A program made the translations under genes and the position numbers. The notes below the pieces were generated by a model. That model had not been told where the DNA came from. It did not search any database and saw nothing but the letters and a program-made list of their open reading frames with translations. From a virus, in IMG/VR virus record IMGVR_UViG_3300010885_057925, positions 64,001 through 128,000 of that record: a stretch of 64,000 nucleotides of DNA. One strand, written 5' to 3'. Positions 9,034-63,524 of the stretch are shown here, piece after piece (the stretch's first letter is position 1; each line of letters opens with the position of its first letter).

Positions 9034-11283
9034 TCACCAGTCGATCTTGGTTCTGAAGAGGAATCTGTCCTCGCTTCTCTTCACGATCGGCTGGGCGAGC
9101 TGGGATCTCGCGACGACGTTCAAGTTGTCATCATGGAAATTAATGCCCGTGATGATGACAGGTCCGACTGAGGTCTCAGAGGGAACGTCAGAGGCAGTTA
9201 GGGGTTGGAAAGACGGGTTCGAGCTCGAGTTGATCTGTCCCGCAGGGCATGGGACGGCTATCTGCATCACGTGAACCGGGCGCTCGCCACGCATTTCCAT
9301 TGTGAAAGAGCTTGTACCGAACTGTGCCAGCATGGGAGACTTTATCACAGTGATACCCTCATCGTATAGGACAGTGCCGACACCAGCCCATGTCGCGTGG
9401 GGCGTGAGAGCGTCAGCTCGATAGAGGCCTCCGAAGCCATTGTCTTTCAGGGTGATTGCAATCTCTCCGCTAGAGCCCGTCAGATCGGGGTCGACCAGTT
9501 TCAAGCTTCCCGGGTGTATCCTGGCACCGTAGAAGAGATTGCTAGAATCGAAGATTACAACAGCGTCCGACGAGTTGTCTCCAGTCCTAGTGTAGCGCTC
9601 TGGTATATCCACACCAGCGTGAGGAGCGTCGTATGTTGCGGGTGACGTGGCAATGGGCAAAGACGCTGTCGGGATTACGTCTCTTAGAGACACCAGCGAC
9701 AGATCAAGGTTTCCGAAATCATCCACAAACCTCCAGTGAGCCGATCCTGTCACTGGAGGTCTTTGCTCTAGCGTTCCGCTGACCAGTACCCCGTAATCAA
9801 CCTGGAGCTTACCATTATCGCATGGTAGGATCGTCAGATTTCTTTTTTTGAATTTTGACTGGTTGTACAGAGATTGCCCTGCAACGGCATTCGCAGATCC
9901 TGTTAGATTGTAAAGTCTCGGATAGACTCCGGTCGCAAAATCTCTAACGTAATTTTCAACGTTGACTTCTATTTCGTTAGAGTTGAAATGAAGCAGAGAA
10001 TTGTACGGGCTTGATCCCGCACGTTGAGTGACAAAATTAAGATTAAGGTTGGACTTGCTCGTTCCCAAATCTTTCAATATTTCTGGGTATGAGCCCATAA
10101 CTTTGTGATAAGACTGACTGGTGAATAGCACGGGAACATAAAAAACAAGGTGCTCTGGTATCGAGGAGCCGACGCTGTTGGATTGATAATTCTTTATCTC
10201 TGAATCAGAGAGATACTTGTTCCATATCTTCACATCATGAATTTCTGAACGAAGCGGATGAGAAAGAGCGCCAGGATAGTCGTTAGAATAATTTCCGACC
10301 AGGCTGCTCAAGTTGACTCCTTCATAGAAATTCCCAAGCACGACAGAGCTATTCGGTCGAGTAAAGAACACGCTTGACGCGCTGAACGCTCCAACCTCGG
10401 TTCCATCAACCACGAAAGATCCGTACCCTAAAGCGCTGGATCTCGATCGCGACCATCTCACAGCGACGTGATGCCAGCAATTATAGCTCAGAGCGTTGTC
10501 GTTAGACTTGAAGACATAGGATCCCGATGCTGTGGACGGCGCCAGATAAGACGCTGCAGTTCCTAGCTGGAGCTGAAGTCTGAACTTATCGTTTCGACCA
10601 GATTCATCTTTGTGCGAACCAGTAATGATCGAAAGCGTGAAAGATCCAGATATCTGGGCTATCGTTCCTGCTTTATACTCTTCTCCAACTTCCGGCTTGT
10701 ACCTAGGGTTTAGGTAAAAATCAATTGAAAATTCGCTGTTTGTAGTAGCAGATGGGTCGAAAATCCCATGTGGATACATCAACGATGATGAATTCGCAGT
10801 TACGTCCGAAGATAAGAAGAAGTTCAGACACTGGTAATTGGTGAAAGACCAGTCGGCGTAGTGATTCTTAGGCTTATGATAATGAAAAAGATTACGTTGA
10901 ATCGCAGATTTTTTAAGCGAACCCGTGTCAAAACTAAATGGAGGAACGAATCTCGTGATCTCCATCTTTTTTGACTTGTCAGCGTTACGACTGAATGATG
11001 AAACGTACTTGTCAAAAGCAGAGCTTACGACGCTCTGGGCGACGCCCGGGTCTGGTCGAAGAGCAAAAAGATCGCTGTACGACGTTAACGTGGTGCCCTC
11101 GTCCGGGTACGGGCTGGCGCCGAATGACGCTGATACAACGTCCTTCTCTATCGTAGAAAGACGCGGAAACACGGGCACAGAGCCCGTGACCCCAGTCAAC
11201 GAAGACGATGAGAAGTAACGGCGAGGTCTCGCAATGACAGTGAATCTCTCAAAGTTATCCGGACCGAGCTTGATTATCGACAA
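9034..11283 (-). CDS. Virion structural protein with LamG-like domain and C-terminal baseplate/tail-collar-like domain
   Basis: WHHVAVRW...FVVDG...EIHDVKIWNKYLS (LamG-like); C-terminus ITGINFHDDNLNVVARSQLAQPIVK is paralogous to the next gene; GGAGG before TTG start. Confidence 0.7.
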   Translation of the reverse strand: MSIIKLGPDNFERFTVIARPRRYFSSSSLTGVTGSVPVFPRLSTIEKDVVSASFGASPYPDEGTTLTSYSDLFALRPDPGVAQSVVSSAFDKYVSSFSRNADKSKKMEITRFVPPFSFDTGSLKKSAIQRNLFHYHKPKNHYADWSFTNYQCLNFFLSSDVTANSSSLMYPHGIFDPSATTNSEFSIDFYLNPRYKPEVGEEYKAGTIAQISGSFTLSIITGSHKDESGRNDKFRLQLQLGTAASYLAPSTASGSYVFKSNDNALSYNCWHHVAVRWSRSRSSALGYGSFVVDGTEVGAFSASSVFFTRPNSSVVLGNFYEGVNLSSLVGNYSNDYPGALSHPLRSEIHDVKIWNKYLSDSEIKNYQSNSVGSSIPEHLVFYVPVLFTSQSYHKVMGSYPEILKDLGTSKSNLNLNFVTQRAGSSPYNSLLHFNSNEIEVNVENYVRDFATGVYPRLYNLTGSANAVAGQSLYNQSKFKKRNLTILPCDNGKLQVDYGVLVSGTLEQRPPVTGSAHWRFVDDFGNLDLSLVSLRDVIPTASLPIATSPATYDAPHAGVDIPERYTRTGDNSSDAVVIFDSSNLFYGARIHPGSLKLVDPDLTGSSGEIAITLKDNGFGGLYRADALTPHATWAGVGTVLYDEGITVIKSPMLAQFGTSSFTMEMRGERPVHVMQIAVPCPAGQINSSSNPSFQPLTASDVPSETSVGPVIITGINFHDDNLNVVARSQLAQPIVKRSEDRFLFRTKIDW

Positions 11284-11292
11284 GATTCCTCC

Positions 11293-12600
11293 TTAGAAGT
11301 CCAGGCGAATTCTTATCGTCAGGTCCTTTTCATCATTTTTTTCAACCGGTCTCGAGAGCTTTGCGACTGCCAGCAGATTGTCGTTCGCATCGTAGAGGCC
11401 GACCGTCGTGGCGAAGTTGAAGGCACGCTGAGTATCTTCTTGACCCGCATCGATAACGACGATCCTTCCGTCTCCGTCAACATATGTTGGGTTGGACGAG
11501 TAGTTGAACTCATCAGCCCCTGCGCGACAGAAGACGAGAGTGCTATTGATGTTTGTCGTATTCTGGAATGTGACCGCTGTGTTTGAGCCAGAGCTAAAAC
11601 GACAGGAGGCAATGTGATCGACGATGTCGTCCATACTGCCCGATGTCAGGAAGTCGGGGATGAAGCGAGCCGATGGGTTAGAACCGTAGGAGGACTGTAG
11701 CACGCTGCCCGACCCGATGATCGTTTCGTTAGTCGCTAGACCAGAGACCCCCGGATTTCCAACGACGGAAGAGATAGTTCCAGAGACATGCTGACCGCCC
11801 CACATGATTTTCGAGAGATCGAGAACTGCAGTTCCAGCGTCGTAGAACATAAGTCCGATCTTGCGGCTCGTGTTCGACGCATCGACGATCTCACCGACCT
11901 CTCCGCCGAATGTGGTTCGCTTAGAGCTCGCAGCCCCGACATCCGTGAAGATGGCAGATCCGGAGATCGAAGTCCTGAAGAGATTGCTGCCAGTCGTAAT
12001 TGTGGCTGCCGATGCGAGGCTGGACTCCTGTGATGACTTATTCGCCGTGGGAGCACCGTCCAGCGTCGCGGTCGTGTAGAAGCGCATCGCAAAAGTCTCA
12101 CGCTTGATCTTGTCACGTGCGAAGAGGCGCTTGAAGTTGAGGAACAGAGCTTCGTTGATACGATCCGATGATGTGGCTGTCGGGTCTGTCGCAACCTGAA
12201 AGGGGGAGTAGAAAGCCTGATCAGCGTCGCCGAGTAGGCGGGATGCCTGCTGGCGGTACATGTCTACCTTCTCTCTCATCTGCATGGAGGAGCTTGGGAA
12301 GAGAAGCTTTCCCGCAGTGTCCTCTCCGATCTTAACGTTCTGAACCGTGCTACCTGAGTACCACAACCCCACTGTCATGTCGAATATCGGATTTGCAGTC
12401 TGGAGCGTGTAATCCTGATCGTACACAGTCTGGAAGAGAGAAGCAGTGACGCTTGTCGCTCCAGATCCCGTCACGAATACCTGATATGCGCGTCGAGTAG
12501 CGGATCCAGAGACATCCTCTTGGATCACGTCTACGAGCTGATTGAGAGCAGACCGGCTAGTCTTGATGTCTGCCGATGATATTTCTTTAAAAGTGGCCAT
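11293..12600 (-). CDS. Virion structural (baseplate/tail) protein
   Basis: C-terminal EFNYSSNPTY...TTVGLYDANDNLLAVAKLSRPVEK...IRLDF; located in structural module. Confidence 0.7.
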   Translation of the reverse strand: MATFKEISSADIKTSRSALNQLVDVIQEDVSGSATRRAYQVFVTGSGATSVTASLFQTVYDQDYTLQTANPIFDMTVGLWYSGSTVQNVKIGEDTAGKLLFPSSSMQMREKVDMYRQQASRLLGDADQAFYSPFQVATDPTATSSDRINEALFLNFKRLFARDKIKRETFAMRFYTTATLDGAPTANKSSQESSLASAATITTGSNLFRTSISGSAIFTDVGAASSKRTTFGGEVGEIVDASNTSRKIGLMFYDAGTAVLDLSKIMWGGQHVSGTISSVVGNPGVSGLATNETIIGSGSVLQSSYGSNPSARFIPDFLTSGSMDDIVDHIASCRFSSGSNTAVTFQNTTNINSTLVFCRAGADEFNYSSNPTYVDGDGRIVVIDAGQEDTQRAFNFATTVGLYDANDNLLAVAKLSRPVEKNDEKDLTIRIRLDF

Positions 12601-12617
12601 TTGTTAGAGCTTGCCTC

Positions 12618-13328
12618 TTACTTTGTAATCTGGACCTGGAATTCTTTCACGGCTCCCGACTGGAGGCCTGTGATGCTTACGACAGTCGTGATGATCGACT
12701 TGTTCTGTGAGTTACCGTAGACGGTGAACTGCGTATCAGTGAGTGATCTCACTGCGATCGGAAGCGTGACGCGAGAACCACCGGCTGACGTCTCGCCGGC
12801 AGAACGAAGGAGCAGGTACGTTGCGACGCCGTCCTTGTCGATCGTGTCAGGAGTGAGACCCGTGAGTGTGATGAACTGGTTCGCCATCTTAACGATGTAC
12901 GATTGATCGCGAAGCTCTGGGTCGATCAGGCTCTCGCCTGTGATCGTCTGCTCTAGTGTGACCTGGCGTGTTGCTGCTGTTCCGGTTCTCGTCATCGAGA
13001 TGATCGTACCCGTCGAGTCAGCGCCCGTCGAGGTCAGAGCGATCAGAGGAATACGCACAAGATTCGGATTGGAGATCGAAATCGCGCGATACTTGAGAGC
13101 TAGGTTCGCGTTTGTCTGAGCTTCGAAAACCGGGGTATTTTTCTCGATCTTCTCCTTTCCGACCGTGCGTCCGAACTTCTGAATCATTGTGTAGTCGACC
13201 TCATCATCGCCCAACGCGAACTTGATGATGGAGAAGCTACCGTCGTTACGTGCCAAGAATTCACGACCGATGTCGGTCAGCACAGCATCGACTATGATGT
13301 TGTTTGTTGAGTGGTCAAGAAATCCCAT
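12618..13328 (-). CDS. Virion structural protein
   Basis: N-terminus MGFLD...VDAVLTDIGREFLA...FALGDDEVDY is paralogous to 21219..22139. Confidence 0.7.
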   Translation of the reverse strand: MGFLDHSTNNIIVDAVLTDIGREFLARNDGSFSIIKFALGDDEVDYTMIQKFGRTVGKEKIEKNTPVFEAQTNANLALKYRAISISNPNLVRIPLIALTSTGADSTGTIISMTRTGTAATRQVTLEQTITGESLIDPELRDQSYIVKMANQFITLTGLTPDTIDKDGVATYLLLRSAGETSAGGSRVTLPIAVRSLTDTQFTVYGNSQNKSIITTVVSITGLQSGAVKEFQVQITK

Positions 13329-13358
13329 CTTCTAGTTGTCCCTGCTCATAGATATTAG

Positions 13359-13407
13359 AATTTTCAAGTTCTCCTATAAACTTTTTTGATGAGAACTTGA
13401 AAGAATT
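13359..13407. other. Intergenic inverted repeat (possible terminator or regulatory hairpin)
   Basis: TTTCAAGTTCTC (13362-13373) and GAGAACTTGAAA (13391-13402) form a perfect 12-bp stem with a 17-nt loop. Confidence 0.55.
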
Positions 13408-15130
13408 AAGTTGTGGTCGCAGATTCTACGACGCCAGCGACGTAATTCGTCGGATCGCTGATCGAAACGCTGATGCTTGATTGCTTCTGCCTGTCGATGT
13501 TGATCAGTTGAATCTGGTATATCGCTGAATTAGAGGTGCGGAGGAATCCCTGGTCGCGCTTGTCAGAATTTGTGACTGCCAAGTACTCGGGATCGAAGTA
13601 GACTCTCATTTTGGTTGATCCGCTTGATTTAACGCTGTCTAGGGTGAGCTCAGCGTTTAAATATGTGTTCGGGTATTGCTTCGCGGCACCGGACGGAGAG
13701 ATGAGCTCTTTGATGAGCTTGTTCCTGTATCTGTCGAATCTCGCCCTGAACTGCATACCGTAGTTCGATGATTGGCCGTGCGCGTCAACGGAACACATCG
13801 TGTAGATGTAATCAGAGTCTTTATTGAACTCAGAATCCACGTAGTAATTTACCGGACCTTGAAATTTCGATATCAAAGAGTTGTCGATGGTCTCGGGAAA
13901 TGGAGTTCTCTCAACTGAATCGTCGAAATCTATCATTCTTATCAACGAGTACGGTTCGTTGATCGAGCTTCTACGAAATACCTGCCAGTATTTGATGTCT
14001 CTCTGCGAGTTGCTGGGAAACGACCAAACGATCTGAAGCGTGGAATCCTGATAATTCCAATGAAGATTGAAATCAGCGGGCGAGGGAGGCGGGACCGTCT
14101 CCTCTGCGGTTAGTGAAACAGACTTCGAAGGATCTGACAGGAACGGAATCAAGCAGAGCTTGTCCTCTCTAGCAGCTCCCTCTCCGACCGTTAAGTTGTT
14201 GTAGACCGCTGTGATGGATCTAATTCTGTAAGAATACGTTTGACCGTACACGATATTGGTGTCCAAGTAGCTTTTCGTTCCGCGCCTGACAACATGCCTC
14301 GTTGGCTGTGGGTCGGTAGAGACGCTAGAGAACTTCTCTATCATATACCCTAGCAACACTGGTCGACTGGCTAATGAGCCCTCGTCTGGAATCTCGGAAG
14401 CCTCGAACGAAGGGTCGGTGTCCCCCAACGTCGGAGCATCGTCGGTATTGACGAATAGGGATTTTAAAGAACTAACGGCGTTGTAGGAAGCTCGGGCTGC
14501 CGGAGATCCCTCAAACTCTCTGAACGCTGCTCTGGCGCGTTCCTCGTCCAGTAACGCCTGAAACGACTCATCGTTAGAATCATCATCGACTGCGACTGTG
14601 GCACGTTCTAATCCACCGTACGACTCTGGTCCTAATCCGGCTATCTCTAGCCATTGCTGGTCGAAACTTTCACCCAAGATAGCCTTAACGGAAATAGCTG
14701 TGTCTGCTATTGATCCCGTGCTAAGACCTCTTAGGGCTGCGGACTCTCTTAATCTTTCTCCGACTCTAACGTTGAAATCATAATCCTGGACAGCTGCAAA
14801 ATATGAGTTGCGTGTAAGAGTGTCTGCGCTATTAATAGCATCCAGCGGATCCTGACTGCCCTCTATCGATGCGAAAAGCTCCTCCTGCCGAGTCGTTAAA
14901 TCAGAATTTTCAGGTATGATCCCGAGACTAGATCCCACAAAGTTTCCAGACTCCAGCGGTGACCAGTCAAGCTTAAACGCGCGTGGGTATCGATCCGGGG
15001 GTTGAGTCCCGATCGCAACTTTCTCGTCAGCTTCGAAAAAGTTGTATATGAACTGTAGTCTCAAACTAGACGGAGAGGGTATATCAGCCGCGTGAAATGG
15101 GCGGCTGACGTCTCGAGTGATTATGGACAA
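13406..15130 (-). CDS. Putative virion protein with Fn3/Ig-like domains
   Basis: YLDTNIVYGQTYSYRIRS, PPPSPADF..W..LQIVWSFP..IKYWQVFRR, YIYTMCSVDAHGQSS. Confidence 0.6.
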   Translation of the reverse strand: MSIITRDVSRPFHAADIPSPSSLRLQFIYNFFEADEKVAIGTQPPDRYPRAFKLDWSPLESGNFVGSSLGIIPENSDLTTRQEELFASIEGSQDPLDAINSADTLTRNSYFAAVQDYDFNVRVGERLRESAALRGLSTGSIADTAISVKAILGESFDQQWLEIAGLGPESYGGLERATVAVDDDSNDESFQALLDEERARAAFREFEGSPAARASYNAVSSLKSLFVNTDDAPTLGDTDPSFEASEIPDEGSLASRPVLLGYMIEKFSSVSTDPQPTRHVVRRGTKSYLDTNIVYGQTYSYRIRSITAVYNNLTVGEGAAREDKLCLIPFLSDPSKSVSLTAEETVPPPSPADFNLHWNYQDSTLQIVWSFPSNSQRDIKYWQVFRRSSINEPYSLIRMIDFDDSVERTPFPETIDNSLISKFQGPVNYYVDSEFNKDSDYIYTMCSVDAHGQSSNYGMQFRARFDRYRNKLIKELISPSGAAKQYPNTYLNAELTLDSVKSSGSTKMRVYFDPEYLAVTNSDKRDQGFLRTSNSAIYQIQLINIDRQKQSSISVSISDPTNYVAGVVESATTT

Positions 15131-15134: not shown

Positions 15135-18100
15135 TCATCTCCGCTTTTTTGGGTTGAAGCTCTTCATAGCAGTAGAACCATTTTGAATTATACTTGAAAC
15201 TTGAGACGATTGAGCGATTGTTTCGGTGGTAATTTTTTGGGGTCTACGTGAGTTAGTTCTGCGTCTAGATGGAGGCGTATCAGAATTCCTGTCTCTTTGA
15301 TCTCTGCCTGGATCAGAACTCTCAAGCTCTGGTGGGGTTATGACTACCTGCTCTGGCGGCCTGCTTCCCCATGAGCCTCGTGATCTAGGAGTTCCATCGT
15401 CAACTCGAGGATTCACGCTCTCGTCGGGCACATCATCCTGCGATTCAGGAGCTGTCGCAGGAGCTTCGATTATGGGCCTGTAATCTGAGACAAGCGCAGA
15501 GAAGCTGCAGACTGACATTCCACCGTTATGCGGATCTTGATCCTTCAAAAACACCCTTGTGGATGAGTCGGAGTTGGAAACTGGTCTCACATCAGAGAAT
15601 GTTAGACCGTAGTCCAGCACGATATTTGAATTTATTTCCAAAGTGAAGCTGTCTGGGTCAACGGGTATCATGAGGACCCTGTCGTGATTAAAGTCACGAG
15701 CCAACCTGGATAGAAGTCTGGAAGATCTAAGAATGTAGGACGAAGCGAGGTTCGCAAGAATCTCTTTCTTGGGAGTGCTCACTCCGCTTGACGTCTCATT
15801 AAAGTTTACGTATCCGTCCTGGAATATGGATGAAATCGATGACGCTGGTGGAAGAGAAATATCGGGTATGCTCAAATTCGAAAGAGAATTTAGCGCGTTT
15901 ATTCCAACGTTGGAGATTGACGTGTCGTTGTCGATCGCAGTCGATTCGTCAAGAACAAAACCCGACGTGTAATAATGGTATCTCTCTATCATAGCAGAGT
16001 TGTAGGCGTTTACGACAACTTGTTTCAACGTCGCAGCGTCCACATCTGGGTTCAAGCTAGCGTACTTGACGTTGATGTCGAAGTACGAATACGGACCGAG
16101 CTCTCCGCTTCTATCGAAAAGATAATACTCGGTCTCAGAACTTTCTACATTGGGACCTAGATTTCCCAGGAACAGCGCTGGGTCGAAGACGTAATCTTTT
16201 CTTTCGAAAGCATTAGCGATGTGGTATCGATAATCGACCTTTCCGATCGACACCTTGACAAGATTACTCTTATCAGACATCTGTCCGGTAATCGTGGATT
16301 TCGGAACTCCTACGTGAAGAACTCGTAGATTTTTTAAGCTGTTGTCAGCGAAACAATTCGGAATAGCTTCGGAGTTGAGATTCGAAAGGTAAGAGACAAC
16401 GGGCGAGACATTCGAAAAGACTCGAGGCAGATATCCTGATGTTTCAGACGGGCTCCATTTTTTCAGCATAGCACGTCTAAGCGCAACACCATGCGGAGTA
16501 ATCTCTGACAAGGCTTTGAGACGACCCTCATCGCTTGAGAAGCTCAAATCTTTCGAGAGCTCGGTGAAGTTTGTAATCGCGAGTCTTCTAAATTCTTTGA
16601 TGCTTCTAGAGTACGCGTTCAAGAAAGCATAAGCGTTCTGATAAGTTTCAACGTACTTTCTTGTATTAATGAAATCGACCGAAGCAGAGTTACTCGCAGT
16701 GTCGTTATTTGAAGATATCAAAGAGCGTATGCTAGAACCGACCGGACTGAGTGTGTTTCCACCGAAATTGAACCCAAATTTAGCGTGCCAATAGCCTCCA
16801 GATGACACTCTTTCTACTGAAAGCCCGAGGTTTATCGGAAACGTTGAATAACAAATAAAAGAAAAACAGCTTACTATCAACGACATAATCGCGTATTCAT
16901 CCATTTTTCCGTAAGCAGTGAAACCGCTCGTTTCAACGACGCTGTAACCGTCTGGAGCAGAATTTTTGCATTTTTCGATTAGATCGTCGTAGATATCGAC
17001 CATTAAGCTGAATATTGTTCCTTCTGCATCCCAAGATTCACGATAGTAATTGTACGGATGATCCGAGATATCGACTTGAAATCCTTCTGGATATTCATCT
17101 GTAGAAATTCTTGAAGCAACGTCTTTGTCGTATGTCCCGATTCCAACTACATTTCCTCTTTTCGATATCGCAACCTTAGTGAATCGATCGGCTTTCTCAT
17201 CTATATTCGAGTTATCACTAGCAGCACGAGCAATGACACGACCTGAAATGGTATTTTGAGAACTGGCGGAGATCACGTTCGTTTTTGTTTGGGTCGTCAC
17301 GACTTTAGCGTCGCTTTTTAACGTCTCGCTGTCTTCTGATGTCTTAGTCGTCGAAACAGTGACAGAAGAAGCCGGTGATTCTGACGAAAAAGACGCGCTT
17401 TCTATGTTTTGCTTGATTCTATTGTATTTAATAGATCCCAAGCATCGAAGTATGTACTGCCTAAACTCTGATTTGCTTATTATTCTGCCTTCTGAATCTT
17501 TGATTTTTGATTCATCGTTCGCTGCCTCTTGCAAAGCAATAAGCTGATATTTGTTTATAGCGCTTTGGTCAGCAAGAGCTAACGCGTCAGCGAAACTTTC
17601 CAAAACTTTCTTGAAAATCGAAATTGGAGTCAATCCGTTCTGTTCATCTAGAAAACTGACAAGGCTTTCAGTTATTCTTTGAAGTTGAGATATCGATGCT
17701 TCAAGCTGGTCGTTGTAAGAACTCAATTCATCGAAATTCAAATTACCAACCGCGATGGCATCTCTTACCAAAGCGCGCTCGCCAGACACGTAATTTTCGC
17801 CCGATAGTTTTCTACTCGGTATGACTTTCGTCCCGTCCGTCTTATCGTATCTAGCTATTTTCAAAGCGTGATTGAACGGCTCGATTCTTTTGGTGTATAA
17901 AGATCCGTCAGAAACGACTTTGGTCGTCGTGTCATCCAGCTTCTGAACTGACGTTAATTTGGCTCCATCGAAAATTTTATCAGCGTCCGCTATTGTTGAA
18001 ACGTTCAATCCAATTTCTGATTGAATGCTTTTTGCCCTTGCAATTCCTGCCGATAAATTCATCGTGCTGGACAAAGCGTGAACGCACAGTAGGAGCTCTG

Positions 18101-51892: not shown

Positions 51893-51911
51893 GAGCTTAA
51901 CCTTTTCAGCA

Positions 51912-55311: not shown

Positions 55312-56132
55312 AGCTTGTTCTCGAACTTAGGCATAAGATCAAAGAAAAGCTCCATGTTTTCATTAGCTTCAAACGGTCTAATGGAGTGATATTCGCTCAG
55401 CTCTCCAGATCTAACAGCTTGCATCAACTCATCGCACACTCTGATTCTGCCGATCGATCTGTCGATTCTTCTAGAACCCCATTCGTTGTGAAAGTTAGTG
55501 ACAAGTTCTATCTTAGCTCCGGGTTCATCTCTTAACTTTTTTCTAATCAAAGAGCTAGAATAAGCTTCGTCGATGCCCCAGAGACTCATACCTTCTCTAA
55601 AGTTTGGAAGATTGACTCTCCAATCGTAGATCTTATGAAGCTCATCAGACCAGTTTTCGTTGATTTCGTGAATTGACTTGAATTGAGAACCAAAACCCAC
55701 GTGATGTGAGGATGGAAAATCAGCCCCAGGATGATTATATCCGTCGGAGAAACCTACAACGTATTTTCCATCTCTCAAAAACGCCTTGATCATTTTAAAG
55801 AATCTATCACCCAAAGGTATCTGATCTATTCCCGAGATCATACATCTGTCATTTTCAAATCTAGAAGCACCGTAGTACGCGCCCCAAGTGCACGTCCAAT
55901 CTCTCTGCTCAATCAATATGTCTGGAGATCTTTCTAAAAGAAAGATTTCTCCATGGTCGTCCGATAGCTTCTTTAGTTTTCTGAGCTCGTCGAACTCTTC
56001 TTGATTACCAGAGAAAAATAGCGTTGGGACAGTGTTAAACTTCTCATGATATACTTTCGATACAAAATTCCAGAAGCCTAAGTAATCAGAATTGTTTGTC
56101 AACGAAAAGATGACTCTATCAACTATTCTCAT
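55308..56132 (-). CDS. Hypothetical protein, possible GT-A glycosyltransferase
   Basis: Y..FW..VSK, GIDQIPL, WGIDE, RRIDR, H..RP; glycan cluster context. Confidence 0.5.
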   Translation of the reverse strand: MRIVDRVIFSLTNNSDYLGFWNFVSKVYHEKFNTVPTLFFSGNQEEFDELRKLKKLSDDHGEIFLLERSPDILIEQRDWTCTWGAYYGASRFENDRCMISGIDQIPLGDRFFKMIKAFLRDGKYVVGFSDGYNHPGADFPSSHHVGFGSQFKSIHEINENWSDELHKIYDWRVNLPNFREGMSLWGIDEAYSSSLIRKKLRDEPGAKIELVTNFHNEWGSRRIDRSIGRIRVCDELMQAVRSGELSEYHSIRPFEANENMELFFDLMPKFENKL

Positions 56133-56814
56133 TTTTATCTCGCAAAGAATGGATTCTTCTCATCATCTCTGGATTCATATAATGAAAAGTTATCTTTTCG
56201 TCGGTTCCGAATGAATCGATATTTCCAGTGCAAAACTTTTCTGTGTGAATGAACCTGCACTCTCCTGAGTTTCTGAACCAGAATCCTATCGATATGTCGC
56301 TGTTATAAGCTGTTGGGAAATCTTTGGTATCTAGAAGGTATTTCTTGATGGCAGTAAAACACTCTCTAGTCATCACAAACCCTGCTCCTCCGCTGGGATA
56401 TGTCACCGGTAAGCTGCAGTCTCTACCTCTCAAACTTTGAAGGGGCATTCCTTGCTCAAGAGCATGATTCTCAGAGTAGTCATAGAAAACGTGGCCAAGA
56501 CAAGCTTTTTCATTGGGAGAAATTTTAAGCGACTTGATCTCTGCTTTTAACGAGCTAATATCAACGTAGGTGTCATCATCGCTGATCATAATGAAATCAA
56601 AGTCATCAAAATTCTCTAGAGACATCACGAAATAAGCTAACTTAAAAGGAACATACACGTAACCGGTAGGAAGAGTAGAGAAAGAAACCATATCGTTTCC
56701 TTCGCTGTCACCCACGAAGATGTATGCATCAGAATTTTTAGCGTAAGTTTCTCTAATCGCATCTTGAAGTGATCTGTTCTTATCACATGTTATGATTGCA
56801 TTTAGAATCTTCAA
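56119..56814 (-). CDS. Fringe/GT31-like glycosyltransferase
   Basis: DDDTYV, YPSGGAGFVM, SDISIGFW, ITFHY hallmark motifs. Confidence 0.8.
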   Translation of the reverse strand: MKILNAIITCDKNRSLQDAIRETYAKNSDAYIFVGDSEGNDMVSFSTLPTGYVYVPFKLAYFVMSLENFDDFDFIMISDDDTYVDISSLKAEIKSLKISPNEKACLGHVFYDYSENHALEQGMPLQSLRGRDCSLPVTYPSGGAGFVMTRECFTAIKKYLLDTKDFPTAYNSDISIGFWFRNSGECRFIHTEKFCTGNIDSFGTDEKITFHYMNPEMMRRIHSLRDKNENS

Positions 56815-57683
56815 ATTGCACGTCCTTCCGTCAAGATGTATAAGAGATGCTTAGATCTTACATCATAGCTATGATAATTTTCAGACCTTGCGCGACCAAG
56901 ATGAGCTATTTTCTCTCTTTCAGCATCGTTTCTGGTGAAATGATCTATTAGAGCCATGAGCTCGTCTGCGTTATGATAGACGACAATCTCCTCATTAATC
57001 TTGAAGAGTCTTTCGATATTAGGCGTGTAATTTGTGAGCAGCATCGCTCCAGAACCTGTAGCCTCAAAAGTTCTGAAGTTCACGTCGTCAGCGATGTTTA
57101 TGTTGAAAGCTATCTTGTAGCTTGACAGAGCTCGCACCATATCGTTTCCAATCACGAATATGTCGCGCTTCAAATTAAACTTTGACGATATCAGATTAAG
57201 CCAATTCTCTCTGTTGCCGATGAGAGAGCCGCAAAACCCAACGTCAACGTTTCTTTCAACGCTAGAGTCAGGCTTTATCAAATCAGAAGGATACCCATTC
57301 GGAAACCAGACAGCTGAGCTGACCAAACCTCTGAAGTGATCGATGTGCTGTATGTTGGACATCAAGAGAATGTCGAACTTGTGCTTGAGGCAATGAGCTT
57401 GATGATTCTGAAGAGAGCAATGAGAATCGATGCTCCAGAACAATTTCTTTCCCTTGAACTTTGAGATGTCTGGATGCCACCCAGAGTCATAATTCTCAAG
57501 GCTTAGCAGGGCATCACAATCTCTGGATATCTCGTCGAAAGGGACGGAAAAATTATTGTAATTCAACCCCCAAACGACAGCTTCATGACCGGCTCGCTCA
57601 ATTCCTCGCTTAAGGCACAGAGCCTCTCTGAACTCTCTATTTCCTTCGTTTCTTCCGCGTTCCTGTATCAGTAAGATCTTCAT
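56811..57683 (-). CDS. CgeB-like glycosyltransferase (GT-B)
   Basis: WSIDSH, DVGFCGS..R, YKIAFN..DVNFRTFEATGSGAMLLT, HSYDVR. Confidence 0.8.
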   Translation of the reverse strand: MKILLIQERGRNEGNREFREALCLKRGIERAGHEAVVWGLNYNNFSVPFDEISRDCDALLSLENYDSGWHPDISKFKGKKLFWSIDSHCSLQNHQAHCLKHKFDILLMSNIQHIDHFRGLVSSAVWFPNGYPSDLIKPDSSVERNVDVGFCGSLIGNRENWLNLISSKFNLKRDIFVIGNDMVRALSSYKIAFNINIADDVNFRTFEATGSGAMLLTNYTPNIERLFKINEEIVVYHNADELMALIDHFTRNDAEREKIAHLGRARSENYHSYDVRSKHLLYILTEGRAI

Positions 57684-58330
57684 ATGACTGCTCTCAACGC
57701 TGCTTTTTGCTCTTCAACAGCCACATCATTTTCATCGAATGCTAGACCCACAAACTCATCGCTGACGCGTTTGGTCGGAAATTGAATCTTTTGAAAGAAC
57801 TCATCATGAACAATCGAGAACTGAGCGACCTTTGGATAGATAATTTCGCGCAAGAAATTTTGATCAACTTGCCAAAAATCTCCCTTCACGTACTCACGAA
57901 TTAGATCGCTCATGTTACTGAGAAGCGGAGCTCTAGCTCCCCACATTCCTCCTAAAATCTCTGTAGCGTGGTGAGGGTGATCACGCATGATATGAAACAT
58001 CGCGCTGCTTCCGAGCCACTGCTTCACTGCAGCTACTTCACGAGCAGTTATCCTGCTATCGCAGTCTCGACTGATCATCACGTCAACGTCAGGGTCTGAG
58101 GCTGCCTCGAATCTCCAGAACATGCCCGTCCAGTCGCCGGGCTTCTTCATATCGATTACGTGTGCTCCACGATCATGAAGACCGCTGATCGTTTCAGAAG
58201 GAGTATTAGTACCTACATAAAAGCGGGCCTGCCATCCAGGATATAGTTCACTCACAAGCTCAGCGTTCCTAAGAGCTCCGATGTTATACTTTGGGTTATC
58301 ACCCCATAAAGAGTAAGAAACTACTCTCAT
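57680..58330 (-). CDS. Conserved GT-A-like protein
   Basis: SYSLWG..KY..GA..N, MFWRF, SRDCDSR (DxD), FHIMRDHPHH, ILGGMWG, DQNFL. Confidence 0.65.
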   Translation of the reverse strand: MRVVSYSLWGDNPKYNIGALRNAELVSELYPGWQARFYVGTNTPSETISGLHDRGAHVIDMKKPGDWTGMFWRFEAASDPDVDVMISRDCDSRITAREVAAVKQWLGSSAMFHIMRDHPHHATEILGGMWGARAPLLSNMSDLIREYVKGDFWQVDQNFLREIIYPKVAQFSIVHDEFFQKIQFPTKRVSDEFVGLAFDENDVAVEEQKAALRAVI

Positions 58331-59916
58331 CGATTCAACCCGAACATGTGCTGAGCTCTTTGAGCGAACATCATGTGATCTCTCATCACGTGCTGATTGT
58401 TGACTGCGTACGTCATGTCGATACCCTCCTTCGTATTATCAGGGTGCTCATGGCGGATGATTACATCGTCCACATATGTTTGCTTTCCAAAAGCGAAAGC
58501 CACCTGCATAAACTCGTTATCACAGTAGAACGAGACGTAATCGGGGTGGTAGAGATAGCCGAAACGATCGTAGTATCTCTTTCCTAAAACGATCAGAGTG
58601 TTGAGCTTCTGCTTCTGATAACCATCGGAGAACCAGATGACACCATCTAGATCAGGGTAGTTCACCTTCATCTGCCGAATTATCTCGAGATCGTAACCCT
58701 CTCTTTCTGGAATCATATCGTCAGATGCTAGCAGGCAGATATCAAAATCTCGACCAGACATGTCAGCGTTGACAGCTTGAATCTTTGTCTTACTGTTGCC
58801 GTAGCAGACCTCAACGTTTTCGTACGACTCGAATCTTTTTCTGACTTCCTCGTTGTTCATCGTAGAATCGTCAAGATCACATGATACTAAGAACTTGACA
58901 TTCTTAGATCTGCTAAGATTTCTGTAGCTCTCAAGAACTGAGAAAAATTTCTCTGGACGACCGCGGGTTGGAAACTTCACCAGAAGATTGGGCTCTAAGT
59001 TTTCACGACCCGATATGATATCCAGAGTCCTCTGCCAGAAAACTGCTCTTCTATTGTGGAGCCACCTGAGAATGTTGAGAGGTTCGTACTCAAGCCACGT
59101 CTCTCCAACGTGCTGAACATTCTCGTTAGATATCACCTGACATCCCAATAACTTAGACTCAGTTACCATTCTATTAGAAACATCAGCTCCGCGTGGTAGA
59201 CAGACATAACCTTCAGAGTTAGACATAGCTTCTAAAACTTGATCTGGGCTCATGCTCTTGATCAAGCTGAAGATCTTGTCATTTTCCAGTAACCACTTCT
59301 TAGCGTCATCAGTTCCCTTTATCCACGAGTCGGAGTCAAGAGTCAGCCACCCAGACTTTTTTCTATTTGGAAGAGACTGGATAAGAGGAATAATCTTTTT
59401 GAAGAACTCGTCTCCAAATACCGCTGAGAGAACAGAGCAGTTTGCATTTTTCAAGCTTGGGAATCTATCGAAGTACCTTTGCATATGCTTCTGAGAGCAA
59501 AACCAAACTTGCCGAGCATTGAGATAGAACTGCTCAATTAGCTTGCCCCAGGGCTCAGCCTCGCAGCGGCACTCCTCACCGCCCTCTGCCAGATGTCTCT
59601 CAACCGATCTCCATCTACAGAACTTATAGTCATGCTCAAACACGGAGTAGCTAATTTTAGATAACGAAAAAGCGCTTATAAGAGTTGGATTCAATTGAGA
59701 AAAATTACCAAAGACCCAGTGACAGTTTGGTTGACTCTCTACCATCTCTCTAGTCAGATGAGCTGAGTGAACAGTGGCGAACGGAACAGGAGCTGAGCTA
59801 TGCAGAGCGTCCATTGACAGCTCAGCCCCTCCGACCAGATCTGACAGAAAAAAATCTTGAACAAAGATGATCTTAAACTCAGGCTTCTTTTGCTCTGAAA
59901 ATGGACTGTTGAACAT
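58327..59916 (-). CDS. Two-domain glycosyltransferase (GT-B-like N-terminus + GT2-like C-terminus)
   Basis: GGAELS..HDYKFC..KG..LP..D..RMVTESKLLGC; then KFPTRGRP..ASDDM..Y.SFYCDNEF..IIRHEH. Confidence 0.75.
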   Translation of the reverse strand: MFNSPFSEQKKPEFKIIFVQDFFLSDLVGGAELSMDALHSSAPVPFATVHSAHLTREMVESQPNCHWVFGNFSQLNPTLISAFSLSKISYSVFEHDYKFCRWRSVERHLAEGGEECRCEAEPWGKLIEQFYLNARQVWFCSQKHMQRYFDRFPSLKNANCSVLSAVFGDEFFKKIIPLIQSLPNRKKSGWLTLDSDSWIKGTDDAKKWLLENDKIFSLIKSMSPDQVLEAMSNSEGYVCLPRGADVSNRMVTESKLLGCQVISNENVQHVGETWLEYEPLNILRWLHNRRAVFWQRTLDIISGRENLEPNLLVKFPTRGRPEKFFSVLESYRNLSRSKNVKFLVSCDLDDSTMNNEEVRKRFESYENVEVCYGNSKTKIQAVNADMSGRDFDICLLASDDMIPEREGYDLEIIRQMKVNYPDLDGVIWFSDGYQKQKLNTLIVLGKRYYDRFGYLYHPDYVSFYCDNEFMQVAFAFGKQTYVDDVIIRHEHPDNTKEGIDMTYAVNNQHVMRDHMMFAQRAQHMFGLNR

Positions 59917-60003: not shown

Positions 60004-62571
60004 TCACTTTTCGTCGAGCTCAGGAACTCTCTCGAGGAGGAACTTGTAACGCTTTCCGTTCTTGTTGAAGCGGATAGACAGGAAGTCAGATTCCTCGATC
60101 AAGGTGTAGCTACCGCGCTCGTTTCGGAGGTGTAAGTCTCCAGTGTAGATGTTAGCCCATCTGATTGAAGGTCCGCCGAGATCGAATTGGCTGTCCGCGC
60201 CTGGAAAGAATCCTTGACGTCCACCAGAGGCTGTAACATGCGAAATCAGCGCTCCATCAAGGTTGAACCTGTGAGCGATTGTGGCCTGGTTATTGACCGT
60301 GCTACCGCTGAGGGTGAGAGTAGTTACGCCAGTTCCTGCAGCGAGAATAACGTTCTGGTCGGCAGATCCAGAAATTGTTGTTGTATTAGTTACAGCATTG
60401 ATGAGAAGCTCTGCAACCCCATCTCTCTGGAAGACGAATCCGCCTGTTCCAACGTTCGCAGTAACCGTGCTACCGCTTACCGTCATCCCACCAGAGCCGA
60501 CTGCTCCGATATTGACCTGCTGGTTGCTTGCTCCCTGGAAGTTAGCACTGTTTCCAGCCGTTGTCAGAGTAAGAACTGTCTGGGTCGCATTGTTGAACTT
60601 GATATCGTTACCGTCAGCACGGAGAACAAGGTCCGCAGCAGCTCTGAGCCTTGCATCGCTTCCATCACCCTCAACAACAAGATACGCCGGAGCTCCGGTG
60701 TCTTTGACAAACGTTGCACCGCTAGCTCCGTGCGTCAGGGTAATACCGTTCGTACCGCTGAGAGCTAGAGCCACACCCGTGAGTGTTCCGACCTGCAGAG
60801 TGTTAGAAGCGTAGCTGATCGTTCCTCTTCCAGTATCGTTAAACTTTAGATTGACACCCAGCGTATTCGCGCTGAGATCGATGCTTGAGCCTGTCAGGAC
60901 CAGGCTGGTCGCTCCGCCTGCGGCGTCCATCGCAGCAATCTTGAACTCGGTTCCCGAGGTGCCGATAAGCTGACCGACTCTTGAACCGCTCCTCGTGAAG
61001 TTTGTAGCATTGCTGGTGTCTAGAGTGACAGTCGTACCGCTGACAACAAGAGCCTTTCCAGCAGCCGCTCCGAACTGCACATTTGTGCTTGAATCCTTGA
61101 GTTCTGCGAACTGAACGCCTGCTATCTCGAACGAAGTTCCCTTGCCCGTCGCTCCGTTGAGGGTGACGCTACCGTTGTTGGACTGGACTGTTGCTGCATC
61201 GGTAGCAAAGACCGTAAGGGCTGTTCCATTCGAAGACGTAACGTAGGCACTGGTTCCGTTGACCTCGAGCTTGCTTGCTCTGATGGGCTGCAGCGCTGAG
61301 ACCGTGATAGTCACATCTTCCGGAGTTGACGTTGTTCTTGTCGCTACGAAAGCTGAGTTGGAATTTGACCAACCGAAAGCAACGTTGTTACCAGCTCCCG
61401 TGATTCCGCCAATGAAGCCTCGATCTCCTGCGCTAGTAGCGACTGAGCCTGACAGGAAGCCGAATCCGACAAGCGGATCCTCGATCACGAGGTTACTGGC
61501 CGATACGGTCATTGTCGTGCCCTGAACTTCAAGGTCACCAGCGACTACAACTTTCGAAGCAGCTCCACCGAGCGTTAACGTGGTGGTTGATGCGCCACCG
61601 ACGTTGAGGGATGTTGCGGCTGTAGCGATATTACCTGCAGCTGCAGCAAAGACGATATCGTTACCAGAAACTGTGAGATCACCCGCAACCGTTGTGTCAT
61701 TTCCAGCGAACGTCGTTCCCTCGACGACCACGCTGCCACCAGTTGAGGAGATCGTTAGATTACCGGTACCGCTGTGCGTGACTGTCTGAGCGTTCCCAGA
61801 GAGTGTGATATTACCCGCGATATCAGCTGTCGAGTCAACGTCGAGCGCGCCTCTGACGTTTAATGTGTTACCAGTTCCGCTCTGTCCAACGTTGACGGTC
61901 GCTGCAGTGTTTCCGAGGTTGATAGTTGTAGGAGCAGTCGCGGTGATTGTGGTACCACCAACCGTCAATGAGCCTGCAACGGTTGTCGTGTCAGAGGTGG
62001 AATCACCGAGGAAAGTGCTTCCGCTGACAATCGCGTTGCCTTGAACCGTGAGGTTTCCAAGTGCCTGAAGAGCAGAGCCGCTGATGACGCCAAGACCACT
62101 GATGCTTGCGACAGTGTTTCCGTTCGCAAGATCTTTCACAGCGAATGAACCAGAAGTTACGATCGGCCCTGAGAAGAGAGCTGTGTTAGAAGACGTGTTG
62201 CTGCCTGACACAGCGAAGAATACGTCGGAGCCCTTGGTCGAAGCGGCAGCGCCGAATCCGATCGCAATTGACGATGTGGTGAATGCTGCGGTCGCGCCTG
62301 ACTCGGTGAACACACCAGCGCCACCACCACCAGTTGAAGCTGTGATCTCCCACTGACCGAGCGAGTTGTAGTTCGCAGTGATGTTCGGCCCACCAACGAC
62401 AAAGTTATCTCCAGCCCCAGTCTTCTGGAGCGAGCCGGTGATGTTACTGGCATAAACGTTACGCCACTTGCTTGAAGTTGATCCAAGATCGAACGTTGCC
62501 GACCCTGGAATAAGAGATCCAGTTACTGCGATGGTTCCAATAGAACCAGAGAGACTACCTACCAAAGCCAT
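60004..62571 (-). CDS. Tail-fibre-like virion protein (G/S/T/A-rich beta repeats)
   Basis: GDLTVSG/GNLTVQG fibre repeats; DLG..S.RW.N.Y motif at both ends; C-terminal YTGDLHLRNERG module. Confidence 0.7.
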   Translation of the reverse strand: MALVGSLSGSIGTIAVTGSLIPGSATFDLGSTSSKWRNVYASNITGSLQKTGAGDNFVVGGPNITANYNSLGQWEITASTGGGGAGVFTESGATAAFTTSSIAIGFGAAASTKGSDVFFAVSGSNTSSNTALFSGPIVTSGSFAVKDLANGNTVASISGLGVISGSALQALGNLTVQGNAIVSGSTFLGDSTSDTTTVAGSLTVGGTTITATAPTTINLGNTAATVNVGQSGTGNTLNVRGALDVDSTADIAGNITLSGNAQTVTHSGTGNLTISSTGGSVVVEGTTFAGNDTTVAGDLTVSGNDIVFAAAAGNIATAATSLNVGGASTTTLTLGGAASKVVVAGDLEVQGTTMTVSASNLVIEDPLVGFGFLSGSVATSAGDRGFIGGITGAGNNVAFGWSNSNSAFVATRTTSTPEDVTITVSALQPIRASKLEVNGTSAYVTSSNGTALTVFATDAATVQSNNGSVTLNGATGKGTSFEIAGVQFAELKDSSTNVQFGAAAGKALVVSGTTVTLDTSNATNFTRSGSRVGQLIGTSGTEFKIAAMDAAGGATSLVLTGSSIDLSANTLGVNLKFNDTGRGTISYASNTLQVGTLTGVALALSGTNGITLTHGASGATFVKDTGAPAYLVVEGDGSDARLRAAADLVLRADGNDIKFNNATQTVLTLTTAGNSANFQGASNQQVNIGAVGSGGMTVSGSTVTANVGTGGFVFQRDGVAELLINAVTNTTTISGSADQNVILAAGTGVTTLTLSGSTVNNQATIAHRFNLDGALISHVTASGGRQGFFPGADSQFDLGGPSIRWANIYTGDLHLRNERGSYTLIEESDFLSIRFNKNGKRYKFLLERVPELDEK

Positions 62572-62612
62572 GTTATTTCTCCAGAGTCAGCTTTAACTAT
62601 TAACAACGAAAG

Positions 62613-63524
62613 TTAATCCTCGATCAACTGCATCATCATCTTGTAATTTTTACCTGTCTTGTTGTTTACGATCCTGAGGAAATCGTTCTCCTCAATCACA
62701 GTCCAGTCACCACGCTCGTTGCGAAGGTGAAGGTCACCAGTGTAGATGTGGGCCCAGCGGATGTCTGCAGTGCCGAGAGTGTAGGTGTTGTGAGCGTCAG
62801 GAATGATCGAACCTTTCATTCCAACGGAGCCGGTGATGTAAATCGATCCAGACATGAATATGTTGGAAGCTCCGGCAGTGTCCGTTGTTCCAATCTTAAT
62901 ATTCGTGGTTGATCCTGGATCTCCGCCCTGACCTATGTTAATATTCTTTGTGAGACCAGAAAGAGTCGCTCCCGTTGCGAGATTAAGACTGATAGATCCC
63001 GTTCTGCTTGCTGCAACGTTGAGAGTGAAACCGTTCGCGTTGCTTGAATTTCCGAGAGATATTGTGGAAGCTGCTCCACCTATTGCGACGGAGCTGACGC
63101 CGGTTCCGAATATTGTTGTTGAAGATTCAGTGCTGGTGATATCGCCACCGTTAACAGCAATATCTCCTGAGATCGTTAGGCTGTTTGACCCTGTAGCAAA
63201 GACAAGACCTGATGAAGCTCCGAGAAAACCGTTGTTGTTAAACTGTATCTGAGTGTTTGAACCAGCAGGAGGAGAAGAAAACTCGATTAGATCAGAATCA
63301 CCGACTCCATCACGATACCAGTATTTTTTTGATGATCCACTTACGATTAGTCGAACTTCCATCGACTTGAATCTAAGAGCTGATGGAATACCAGAGTTTG
63401 CTGCTGCAATAGAAGACGAGACGGTATCGAAAGAACCAGTGAAGGGTCCCGAATACGAGTCGACTGGAACCGCGTTGACAGGCTGAATTCCGTATGGTAG
63501 CTGAAGTCCGGGAGTTACTGGCAT
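62613..63524 (-). CDS. Fibre-like virion protein
   Basis: PAGSNTQIQFNNNGFLGAS motif, GDIAVNGGDIT; same C-terminal YTGDLHLRNERG module. Confidence 0.7.
   Translation of the reverse strand: MPVTPGLQLPYGIQPVNAVPVDSYSGPFTGSFDTVSSSIAAANSGIPSALRFKSMEVRLIVSGSSKKYWYRDGVGDSDLIEFSSPPAGSNTQIQFNNNGFLGASSGLVFATGSNSLTISGDIAVNGGDITSTESSTTIFGTGVSSVAIGGAASTISLGNSSNANGFTLNVAASRTGSISLNLATGATLSGLTKNINIGQGGDPGSTTNIKIGTTDTAGASNIFMSGSIYITGSVGMKGSIIPDAHNTYTLGTADIRWAHIYTGDLHLRNERGDWTVIEENDFLRIVNNKTGKNYKMMMQLIED

Follow-up and report, generated by a model that had tools for sequence, protein, structure and literature searches.

The window analysed here (the whole stretch of 64,000 nucleotides) spans bases 64001-128000 of a single 171.5-kb virus record, IMGVR_UViG_3300010885_057925, from a T4-like phage. 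It contains 50 listed open reading frames (ORFs), and every large one lies on the minus strand. Seven of the ORFs between positions 9034 and 63524, which encode baseplate, fibre-like and other virion proteins, carry many copies of the tripeptide [S/T]-G-S (hereafter [ST]GS). The same region holds two adjacent genes for glycosyltransferases of family GT4, GT4-A and GT4-B, and a 20-kb island of sugar-related genes (Table 1). In the initial annotation, the tripeptide had been read as a candidate sequon for phage-encoded O-glycosylation of virion proteins, and the adjacent 20-kb cluster as the supplier of the enzymes.

The [ST]GS motif in outer virion proteins

The expected number of [ST]GS was calculated from composition, and 2000 composition-preserving shuffles were generated for each ORF. 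The counts made by eye in the seven ORFs (8, 8, 13, 12, 7, 13 and 6) were all exactly reproduced, against 0.9-3.3 expected. The enrichment also held under the shuffles in all seven ORFs, a fraction of at most 0.0005 of the 2000 reaching the observed count in each. The excess is about 5-9x per protein, and the outer tail, baseplate and fibre proteins stand overall at ~5x chance. The proteins that had been described as lacking the motif do lack it: there is no copy in the Ser-rich 1237-aa protein (1.8 expected), in the 788-aa protein (0.95 expected) or in the gp6-like protein, and one copy in SbcCD. A 306-aa protein was not enriched (1 vs 0.5).

We also compared all tripeptides in the seven proteins. 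TGS (31 vs 5.1) and SGS (36 vs 7.5) were by far the top two (p ~1e-14), and no comparable tripeptide excess was seen in the other 43 ORFs of the window. An unbiased ranking over all ORFs of at least 300 aa in the genome likewise placed TGS first and SGS second. In the whole genome, 11 enriched ORFs, all for outer virion proteins, contain 106 sites vs 22 expected, and all remaining ORFs contain 43 vs 41.7. Outside the region between 9034 and 63524, a 1063-aa fibre-like protein whose gene crosses the window end (21 vs 5.8), two tandem tail-sheath paralogues (6 vs 1.2 each) and a 472-aa fibre-like protein (6 vs 1.2) are enriched. When the 11 proteins were shuffled in blocks of 10 or 20 residues, the 106 sites compared with 25 +/- 4.7. 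Taken together, the whole-protein and block shuffles rule out an artefact of global or local composition. The remark that codons differ between copies was also borne out, since the 106 sites comprise 74 distinct 9-mers and use background codon frequencies at all three positions. These data rule out a DNA repeat or another DNA-level signal, and given that codon use at the sites equals the background, the signal and the selection on it lie at the protein level.

The motif shows a sharp specificity. In a matrix of X-G-S, only S (4.5x) and T (5.3x) are in excess, with N, D and A at ~1x. In [ST]-G-Z, only S is clearly in excess (4.8x); K reaches 2.3x on the basis of 11 cases, and the values for T, N and D are 1.3x, 1.3x and 0.8x. 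In [ST]-X-S, G alone is in excess (4.8x). Three variants had also been suggested, namely SAS, TAS and SGT. SGT is indeed raised, at ~2x in this genome and 2.7x in the seven-protein set, but [ST]AS stands at 1.3x and is not enriched in this genome, although it reaches ~3x in relatives. The reported preference for a preceding hydrophobic residue was clear: position -1 is hydrophobic in 65% of the sites vs 31% in the background (V, 3.6x), and position -2 in 49% (background 31%; F, 3x). The full context can thus be written phi-phi-[S/T]-G-S, where phi is a hydrophobic residue.

Laminin_G_3 was matched above the cut-off in three of the seven motif-rich proteins (7.5e-8, 1.2e-12 and 3.4e-12), and none of the seven has a match in PHROGs. 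The 435-aa protein, the densest in motif, has no match in Pfam or PHROGs. The majority of the sites fall outside the LamG domains. Of the 12 sites in the two sheath paralogues, none falls within the Pfam-matched core, and in the gp23-like major capsid protein, all three lie within or at the edge of a ~200-residue insertion between the Gp23 matches. By region, the sheaths and the capsid protein have 14 sites vs 3.5 expected outside the Pfam cores and 0 vs 0.62 inside. Because the cores were expected to hold only 0.62 sites, their lack of sites is uninformative as a test of topology, and only the enrichment of the variable parts counts. Each sheath paralogue has its Pfam sheath core only at the C-terminus, after 700-800 residues that match no Pfam family.

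To map the sites, we used AlphaFold2 (AF2) models. The model of the 499-aa protein (predicted local distance difference test, pLDDT, 89.5) consists of beta-sandwich domains, for which Foldseek returned carbohydrate-binding-module-like and immunoglobulin-like beta-sandwiches. Here, site 45 is placed in a ten-residue loop, site 146 in a short strand, site 207 at the end of a strand that runs into a helix, site 256 at a strand start, site 280 in a loop, site 291 in a two-residue hairpin and site 341 at a helix C-cap. The model of the 1120-aa protein is of moderate quality (pLDDT 65.7), so that several site assignments are tentative; most sites are placed at strand ends or starts or in loops, and one in a helix. 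Overall, the predicted settings include helix N-caps and C-caps as well as long loops and strand termini. Loops, expected in the initial annotation to lie at the surface, are among the settings; many sites are at strand ends or starts and some within a strand or helix. Given that the settings differ and that the LamG domains contain few sites, a single repeated domain is ruled out, in line with the earlier view that the carrier proteins have different folds and share no single structural repeat. In these models, the motif is independent of fold, with a leaning to strand termini.

Distribution and turnover of the motif in related phages

A search with the gp6-like protein identified Microcystis phage Mel-JY01 and the Flavobacterium 'immuto' phages as the nearest cultured relatives, at ~33% identity. 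A 484-kb uncultured phage (LR756508) is likewise at ~33% identity by gp6, and many relatives occur in IMG/VR. The hosts of the clade, namely Cyanobacteria, Flavobacterium and Rhodothermus, belong to three phyla. CheckV estimated the 171.5-kb record to be 51% complete, despite the presence of head, tail, replication and sugar modules. This estimate is possibly unreliable if its nearest reference is the 484-kb LR756508; alternatively, the genome may be much larger.

We ranked tripeptides in ten genomes, comprising six enriched genomes (this phage, Mel-JY01, immuto, two IMG/VR genomes and Rhodothermus phage RM378) and T4, cyanophage Syn1, rhizobiophage RHph_I1_18 and vibriophage phi-ST2. The six genomes carrying the GT4 pair have a genome-wide [ST]GS excess of 2.0-2.7x with TGS and SGS ranked high, and RM378 shows the same phi-phi-[ST]GS-phi context. 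In T4, Syn1, RHph_I1_18 and phi-ST2, there is no enriched ORF and TGS ranks between 1365 and 6157; T4 virion proteins are in fact depleted (2 [ST]GS vs 7.9). GT4-A and a BLASTP homologue of GT4-B are present in all six enriched genomes, and in the same four phages GT4-A is absent at tblastn E<=1e-10 and GT4-B at E<=0.01. The comparison proposed in the initial annotation, of motif excess with glycosyltransferase genes across relatives, is thus in favour of a connection, but the six enriched genomes form one clade, so that the co-occurrence counts as one evolutionary event.

Further comparisons concerned gene content. GT4-A was found in all five of the more distant genomes tested, where it lies elsewhere in the genome when it is not beside the baseplate genes. 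Among 80 IMG/VR relatives, there was no lineage that has the baseplate genes and has lost the GT4 pair. Homologues present in 5/5 ingroup genomes and in no outgroup were found for the GT4 pair, the 435-aa motif-rich protein and a T4_baseplate-family protein, and for no other genes; the other clade-specific genes, apart from a nuclease gene described below, are divergent T4 core proteins. The 749-aa protein has homologues in Mel-JY01, immuto, the genome G001 and RM378 and none in the outgroups.

Mel-JY01 has a peculiarity of its own. Its 805-aa ORF (635-3052, plus strand) contains 37 [ST]GS vs 19 expected, its enriched ORFs contain 77 SGT vs 10.7, and the top three tripeptides of the genome are SGT, TSG and GTS. 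This surplus points to a low-complexity repeat of S, G and T, probably in the 805-aa ORF, which differs from the dispersed motif and inflates the motif totals of Mel-JY01.

Next, we followed the sites through evolution. Among 46 orthologues of the 499-aa protein, each has 0-9 motifs, mostly 4-9, and among 23 orthologues of the 1120-aa protein, each has 2-13, with all but one having at least 7. Apart from a few low outliers, both sets hold ~4-13 motifs vs 1-2 expected, and gp6 orthologues have none or, rarely, one. An orthologue of the 1184-aa protein at 62% identity retains 9 motifs. Among orthologues at 35-93% identity, many sites are conserved by position (for example, columns S24 G21 S22 and [TS] G24 S23), and the Ser/Thr of the motif is more strongly conserved than the remaining Ser/Thr of these proteins (0.67 vs 0.45, p = 8e-4; 0.59 vs 0.45, p = 0.03). 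We also examined a deep set, in which this phage was joined by Mel-JY01, immuto and two IMG/VR genomes that are complete or nearly so. At this distance (24-29% identity), where alignments are error-prone, each orthologue is enriched (observed/expected 12/2.1, 11/1.4, 5/1.3, 6/1.5 and 14/4.8), and no more than 1-3 of the sites in each protein have an aligned counterpart elsewhere in the set. The sites of the 435-aa protein are not kept across deep relatives. This looks like a turnover of sites with maintained density, which would resemble the behaviour of a sequon.

The GT4 pair and the sugar island

In the pair, PF00534 and PF13692 are matched above the cut-off, and both members keep the E-x7-E motif that GT4 enzymes have in the C-terminal Rossmann domain. 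The orthologues share this motif, which has the form EGFGLxTLE in GT4-A and EGxGLPxLE in GT4-B. GT4-A orthologues have a mean column identity of 66%, and GT4-A exceeds gp6 in conservation (for example, 61% vs 42% in the relative L058). Database searches returned 3399 clusters of GT4-A homologues. Among 50,697 phage records, GT4-A occurs only in four immuto phages, Mel-JY01, LR756508 and RM378, and by BLASTP, GT4-B has homologues in 5/5 ingroup genomes and in no outgroup. We looked for the pair in an unrelated phage lineage, but the homologue list is dominated by close relatives and was uninformative on this point. Of the solved chains, only that of chlorovirus B736L (3oy2) matches the GT4-A profile across both GT-B domains (positions 8-311 of 416, E = 1.7e-10). 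As for the gene boundaries, the GT4-B ORF from an upstream TTG start overlaps the end of GT4-A by 43 nt (41110-41152). GT4-B more probably starts at the conserved Met in position 14, and the public gene call for GT4-A is a shorter form of 359 aa (P0008).

We then predicted the complex of GT4-A and GT4-B. The interface score (ipSAE) was 0.79, vs 0.00 for the best control, the runs agreed in at least 96% of contacts and the pLDDT of the partners was at least 90; in a benchmark, the mark was reached by 58/80 solved complexes and 2/110 mismatched pairs. In the predicted contact, GT4-A rests with its C-terminal tail (residues 407-413) against GT4-B at residues 241-250. GT4-A and GT4-B are thus predicted to bind as a heterodimer, which the model supports but does not show.

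Beyond the pair, the island encodes Glf, an epimerase, a UGDH-like protein, a cytidylyltransferase, Gmd, Fcl, DegT, a hexapeptide acyltransferase, an SDR, an AMP-binding enzyme, a CapD-like protein, an NTP-transferase, a HAD hydrolase, DUF7796, a GT31/Fringe-like protein, Glyco_trans_1_2 and two unknown proteins. Across relatives, only the GT4 pair and the PD-(D/E)XK nuclease are syntenic, and the content of the rest differs. The nuclease gene is syntenic in most relatives. Of the 20-kb cluster that was taken to supply the enzymes, the GT4 pair (39950-42351) is thus the part conserved with the motif, and the remainder varies; moreover, the pair lies far from the baseplate genes in distant relatives. 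By gene content, the putative partner that is conserved with the motif is the GT4 pair only, and not the whole 20-kb island. A hydropathy scan of the 50 listed window ORFs revealed no multi-pass membrane protein, but only one N-terminal hydrophobic segment in a 104-aa ORF and one segment in the 1237-aa protein. Given this result, the island is without a flippase, a polymerase or a lipid-carrier transferase, and it does not qualify as an O-antigen or capsule cluster of the Wzx/Wzy or ABC type.

Some of the island proteins look short against their family profiles. The UGDH-like protein (45208-46203, minus strand) is 331 aa long, with its profile (413 positions) unmatched after position 295, DegT (48520-49341, minus strand) has 273 aa and covers profile positions 27-235 of 360, and the AMP-binding protein (50758-51654, minus strand) has 298 aa and covers positions 169-329 of 384. 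In the close relative L008, the UGDH-like orthologue (94% identity) also has 331 aa, and so this short form is conserved rather than broken. At the other end of the window, the single ORF for SbcCD begins with a phosphoesterase of the Mre11 type (Metallophos, residues 2-181) and also encodes an ATPase of the Rad50/SbcC type (SMC_N, SbcC Walker B). Its T4 counterpart consists of two proteins, gp47 and gp46.

Table 1. Features of the window and of the wider genome. Counts are [ST]GS observed vs expected; positions refer to the window unless the genome is named.
Feature	Position	Strand	Remarks
749-aa virion protein, LamG/ConA-like domain	9034-11283	-	8 vs 1.34; Laminin_G_3 at residues 227-364
435-aa virion protein	11293-12600	-	8 vs 0.86; densest in motif (9x)
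1184-aa outer baseplate/fibre protein, LamG	25491-29045	-	13 vs 2.53; Laminin_G_3 at residues 894-1054
1120-aa baseplate protein, LamG, second gene after gp6	29902-33264	-	12 vs 2.13
499-aa multi-beta-sandwich baseplate protein, directly after gp6	33264-34763	-	7 vs 1.34
855-aa fibre-like protein	60004-62571	-	13 vs 3.25 (vs 3.6 with 10-aa block shuffles)
303-aa fibre-like protein	62613-63524	-	6 vs 1.16
1063-aa fibre-like protein, C-terminal part in window	63537-64000	-	full protein (genome 127537-130728) 21 vs 5.75
GT4-A, 413-aa retaining GT-B glycosyltransferase	41110-42351	-	Pfam Glycos_transf_1
GT4-B, ~387 aa from internal Met	39950-41152	-	Pfam Glyco_trans_1_4
PD-(D/E)XK nuclease, conserved neighbour of the GT4 pair	42400-43227	-	Pfam PDDEXK_1 at 2e-25
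Variable sugar-nucleotide/transferase island	43187-59916	-	whole sugar island with GT4 pair and nuclease, 39950-59916
Tail-sheath paralogues, 1000 and 1032 aa	genome 44393-47395 and 47429-50527 (L003:8393-11395, 11429-14527)	-	moderate [ST]GS excess
gp23-like major capsid protein, 627 aa	genome 57022-58905	-	Pfam Gp23 at residues 80-161 and 363-618
gp6-like inner baseplate protein	34763-36601	-	Pfam Baseplate_J (weak); 0 [ST]GS
gp25-like inner baseplate protein	36602-37084	-	Pfam GPW_gp25; 0 [ST]GS
Ser-rich 1237-aa, 788-aa and 306-aa proteins and 1095-aa collagen-like fibre	within 15135-25472	-	not enriched
T4-type portal	173-2089	-	
Large terminase	2104-3726	-	
SbcCD, fused Mre11-Rad50-like, 1043 aa	4388-7519	-	single ORF

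Possible meaning of the motif and known systems

Based on these observations, we tentatively propose, with a confidence that falls only a little short of even, that phi-phi-[S/T]-G-S serves as a sequon by which the outer virion proteins are O-glycosylated in the cytoplasm and that the GT4 pair carries out the priming. Three elements of this proposal are inferred, namely the existence of a modification on the motif, its nature as a sugar and the identity of the enzyme. The recognition motif would be carried by peripheral baseplate proteins, fibres and the variable sheath parts outside the Pfam core and, more weakly, by the insertion of the capsid protein. The outer virion proteins would be O-glycosylated in the host cytoplasm on the hydroxyl of the motif, with priming by a soluble heterodimer of GT4-A and GT4-B, and the glycan would then be extended with sugars from the variable neighbouring island, whose putative routes lead to GDP-fucose, galactofuranose, a uronate and an N-acylated amino sugar. 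Since the GT4 pair is conserved across hosts of three phyla, the acceptor is likely to be the phage's own rather than a host-specific envelope. In its wider form, the proposal would be that a very large clade of aquatic and thermophilic 'far-T4' myoviruses, with hosts in at least three phyla, has a self-contained, sequon-directed system of cytoplasmic O-glycosylation, in which two active GT4 enzymes acting as a heterodimer prime a glycan on folded outer virion proteins and a fast-changing island diversifies the outer sugars. This wider form may be true, but we would hold it with distinct reserve and somewhat below an even chance.

Several points weigh against the proposed sequon. First, a search of the literature on Mel-JY01 and RM378 found no virion chemistry. 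Second, the co-occurrence with the GT4 pair may reflect shared ancestry only, as all of the enriched genomes come from one clade. Third, some surface proteins are without enrichment, namely the 1095-aa collagen-like fibre (4 vs 4.3), which has a PHROG tail fibre match and a collagen match, and a 574-aa protein (2 vs 0.65). The claim that the motif is limited to probable virion-surface proteins thus holds in that the excess occurs only in outer virion ORFs, but not every such protein has it. Fourth, site hopping, that is, mutually exclusive neighbouring sites, gave no signal in two orthologue alignments, where some pairs of sites co-occur, and some aligned positions carry either the motif or G-N or G-D, as would an ordinary turn. 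Finally, GT4 enzymes often homodimerise in solved structures, and the positive heterodimer prediction may partly reflect a likeness to solved GT4 homodimers; in addition, the sequence of GT4-A resembles small-molecule GT4 enzymes (BshA, MshA, TreT and sucrose-phosphate synthase) about as well as any protein glycosyltransferase.

We therefore considered other explanations. One, which deserves serious attention although we regard it as unlikely, is that the motif is purely structural. [S/T]-G-S would then act as a strand cap or a tight turn in the beta-sandwich and fibre domains of the outer tail, it would carry no attached group, and the GT4 pair would be unrelated to it. The hydrophobic residues at -1, at -2 and often at +1 would fit a strand-turn-strand geometry, and the many AF2 sites at strand ends and starts, the many positionally conserved sites and the alternation with G-N or G-D point in the same direction; one site even coincides with the canonical LamG motif F-x-G-x-[IL]-D-E. 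However, N, D, G and T would be expected to replace one another in ordinary beta-turns, whereas only S/T-G-S is in excess here. The sites also occur at helix caps, in long loops and inside strands, and deep orthologues retain the density rather than the positions. Moreover, the homologous beta-rich virion proteins of T4 are depleted in the motif, and Syn1, RHph_I1_18 and phi-ST2 have no TGS excess. A generic beta-turn preference as the sole cause is ruled out by these four controls and the X-G-Z matrix.

It is also conceivable, although we consider it improbable, that the motif is a signal for something other than glycosylation, such as phosphorylation, acylation, an assembly chaperone or an adsorption contact, and that the GT4 pair and the island act on a small molecule or on host envelope glycans. 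The sharp specificity and the positional turnover would indicate a recognition motif without naming its reader, and the likeness of GT4-A to small-molecule enzymes fits this explanation, and sugar islands in other marine myophages have been attributed to host-surface remodelling. On the other hand, no clade-conserved candidate for a kinase, an acyltransferase or a chaperone was found: apart from the GT4 pair, the genes specific to the clade encode the nuclease, two virion proteins and divergent T4 core proteins. An envelope-directed transferase would also be unlikely as a core gene across three host phyla, and the window is without membrane machinery.

A last explanation is that the GT4 pair glycosylates phage DNA, as the alpha- and beta-glucosyltransferases of T4 do, and that the protein motif is a coincidence of the clade. 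Both GT4 proteins match Pfam GT4-conflict at ~1e-8, the PD-(D/E)XK nuclease is their conserved neighbour, and in RM378, where GT4-B also adjoins GT4-A, the pair sits between a 5'-3' exonuclease-like gene and a ribonucleotide reductase. Phage glycosyltransferases that hypermodify DNA are known (bioRxiv 10.1101/2023.12.21.572611). The phage immuto replaces dG fully by 7-(formylamino)methyl-7-deazaguanine, and analysis of immuto_2-6A DNA by liquid chromatography with ultraviolet and tandem mass spectrometry detection (LC-UV-MS/MS) detected only dA, dC, dT and fdPreQ1 and no glycosylated nucleoside (bioRxiv 10.1101/2023.04.13.536721). Given that immuto_2-6A nevertheless has the GT4 pair, that the ThyA/hydroxymethylase family (PF00303) has no match in this possibly incomplete record, and that the protein motif would be left unexplained, a DNA acceptor and in particular a glucosylation of the T4 type seem very improbable.

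If phi-phi-[S/T]-G-S is indeed a sequon, it would be the first one defined for phage glycosylation and would provide a phage counterpart of the viral glycan shield. Virion glycosylation would then be a core and ancient trait of a highly abundant group of environmental myoviruses rather than a curiosity of mycobacteriophages, and a three-residue rule would predict the modified sites from sequence alone. This would bear on host recognition, on resistance to proteases and grazers and on the stickiness of particles in aquatic carbon flux. It would also affect virion metaproteomes, from which the modified peptides would go missing, and it would offer a compact soluble enzyme pair and a tag for protein glycoengineering. 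Three cultured relatives (immuto, Mel-JY01 and RM378) make the question directly testable now.

To our knowledge, no tripeptide sequon has been defined for the virion glycosylation of mycobacteriophages. In that system, as in the one proposed here, phage-encoded glycosyltransferases decorate structural proteins inside the host (Freeman et al. 2023, as cited in PMC12582341 and PMC12894461). However, those phages are siphoviruses of actinobacteria with transferases unrelated to the GT4 pair, whereas here aquatic T4-like myoviruses are concerned, with proteins of the tail, baseplate and fibres as the putative carriers. Chloroviruses and giant viruses (GT4 B736L/A546L, Gmd, Fcl) are similar in that they encode both sugar-nucleotide enzymes and soluble transferases. 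They differ in that they are viruses of eukaryotes, and in chloroviruses the glycans are attached to the capsid protein by N-linkage at atypical sites; B736L binds GDP-mannose (PMC9614988).

Two bacterial systems also come close to the proposed mechanism. The O-GlcNAc transferase GtfA/GtfB of serine-rich-repeat adhesins is also encoded by adjacent GT-B/GT4-type genes and glycosylates Ser/Thr in the cytoplasm as a soluble heterocomplex, which resembles the pairing predicted here. However, GtfB is non-catalytic, while both GT4 enzymes here keep E-x7-E, and the acceptors of GtfA/GtfB are long Ser-rich repeats rather than dispersed tripeptides. The pair would not belong to this type, as there is no DUF1975 in the Pfam search and Gtf1 (4pqg) matched the GT4-B profile at E = 0.49. 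The bacterial autotransporter heptosyltransferases (BAHTs; TibC/TibA and Aah/AIDA-I) likewise perform cytoplasmic O-glycosylation of a folded, beta-rich surface protein at multiple sites. They are iron-binding dodecamers that use ADP-heptose as a donor, and the window transferases had no TibC-like match in Pfam, NCBIfam and PDB searches. In TibA, only Ser and not Thr is modified (PMC4358343), whereas position 0 here accepts Thr and the candidate enzymes are GT4. The modified serines of TibA have the contexts ...QNS*GG... and ...NTS*AA..., where a beta-strand precedes the Ser and small residues come next (PMC4358343), and in this respect they resemble phi-phi-[ST]-[G]-S.

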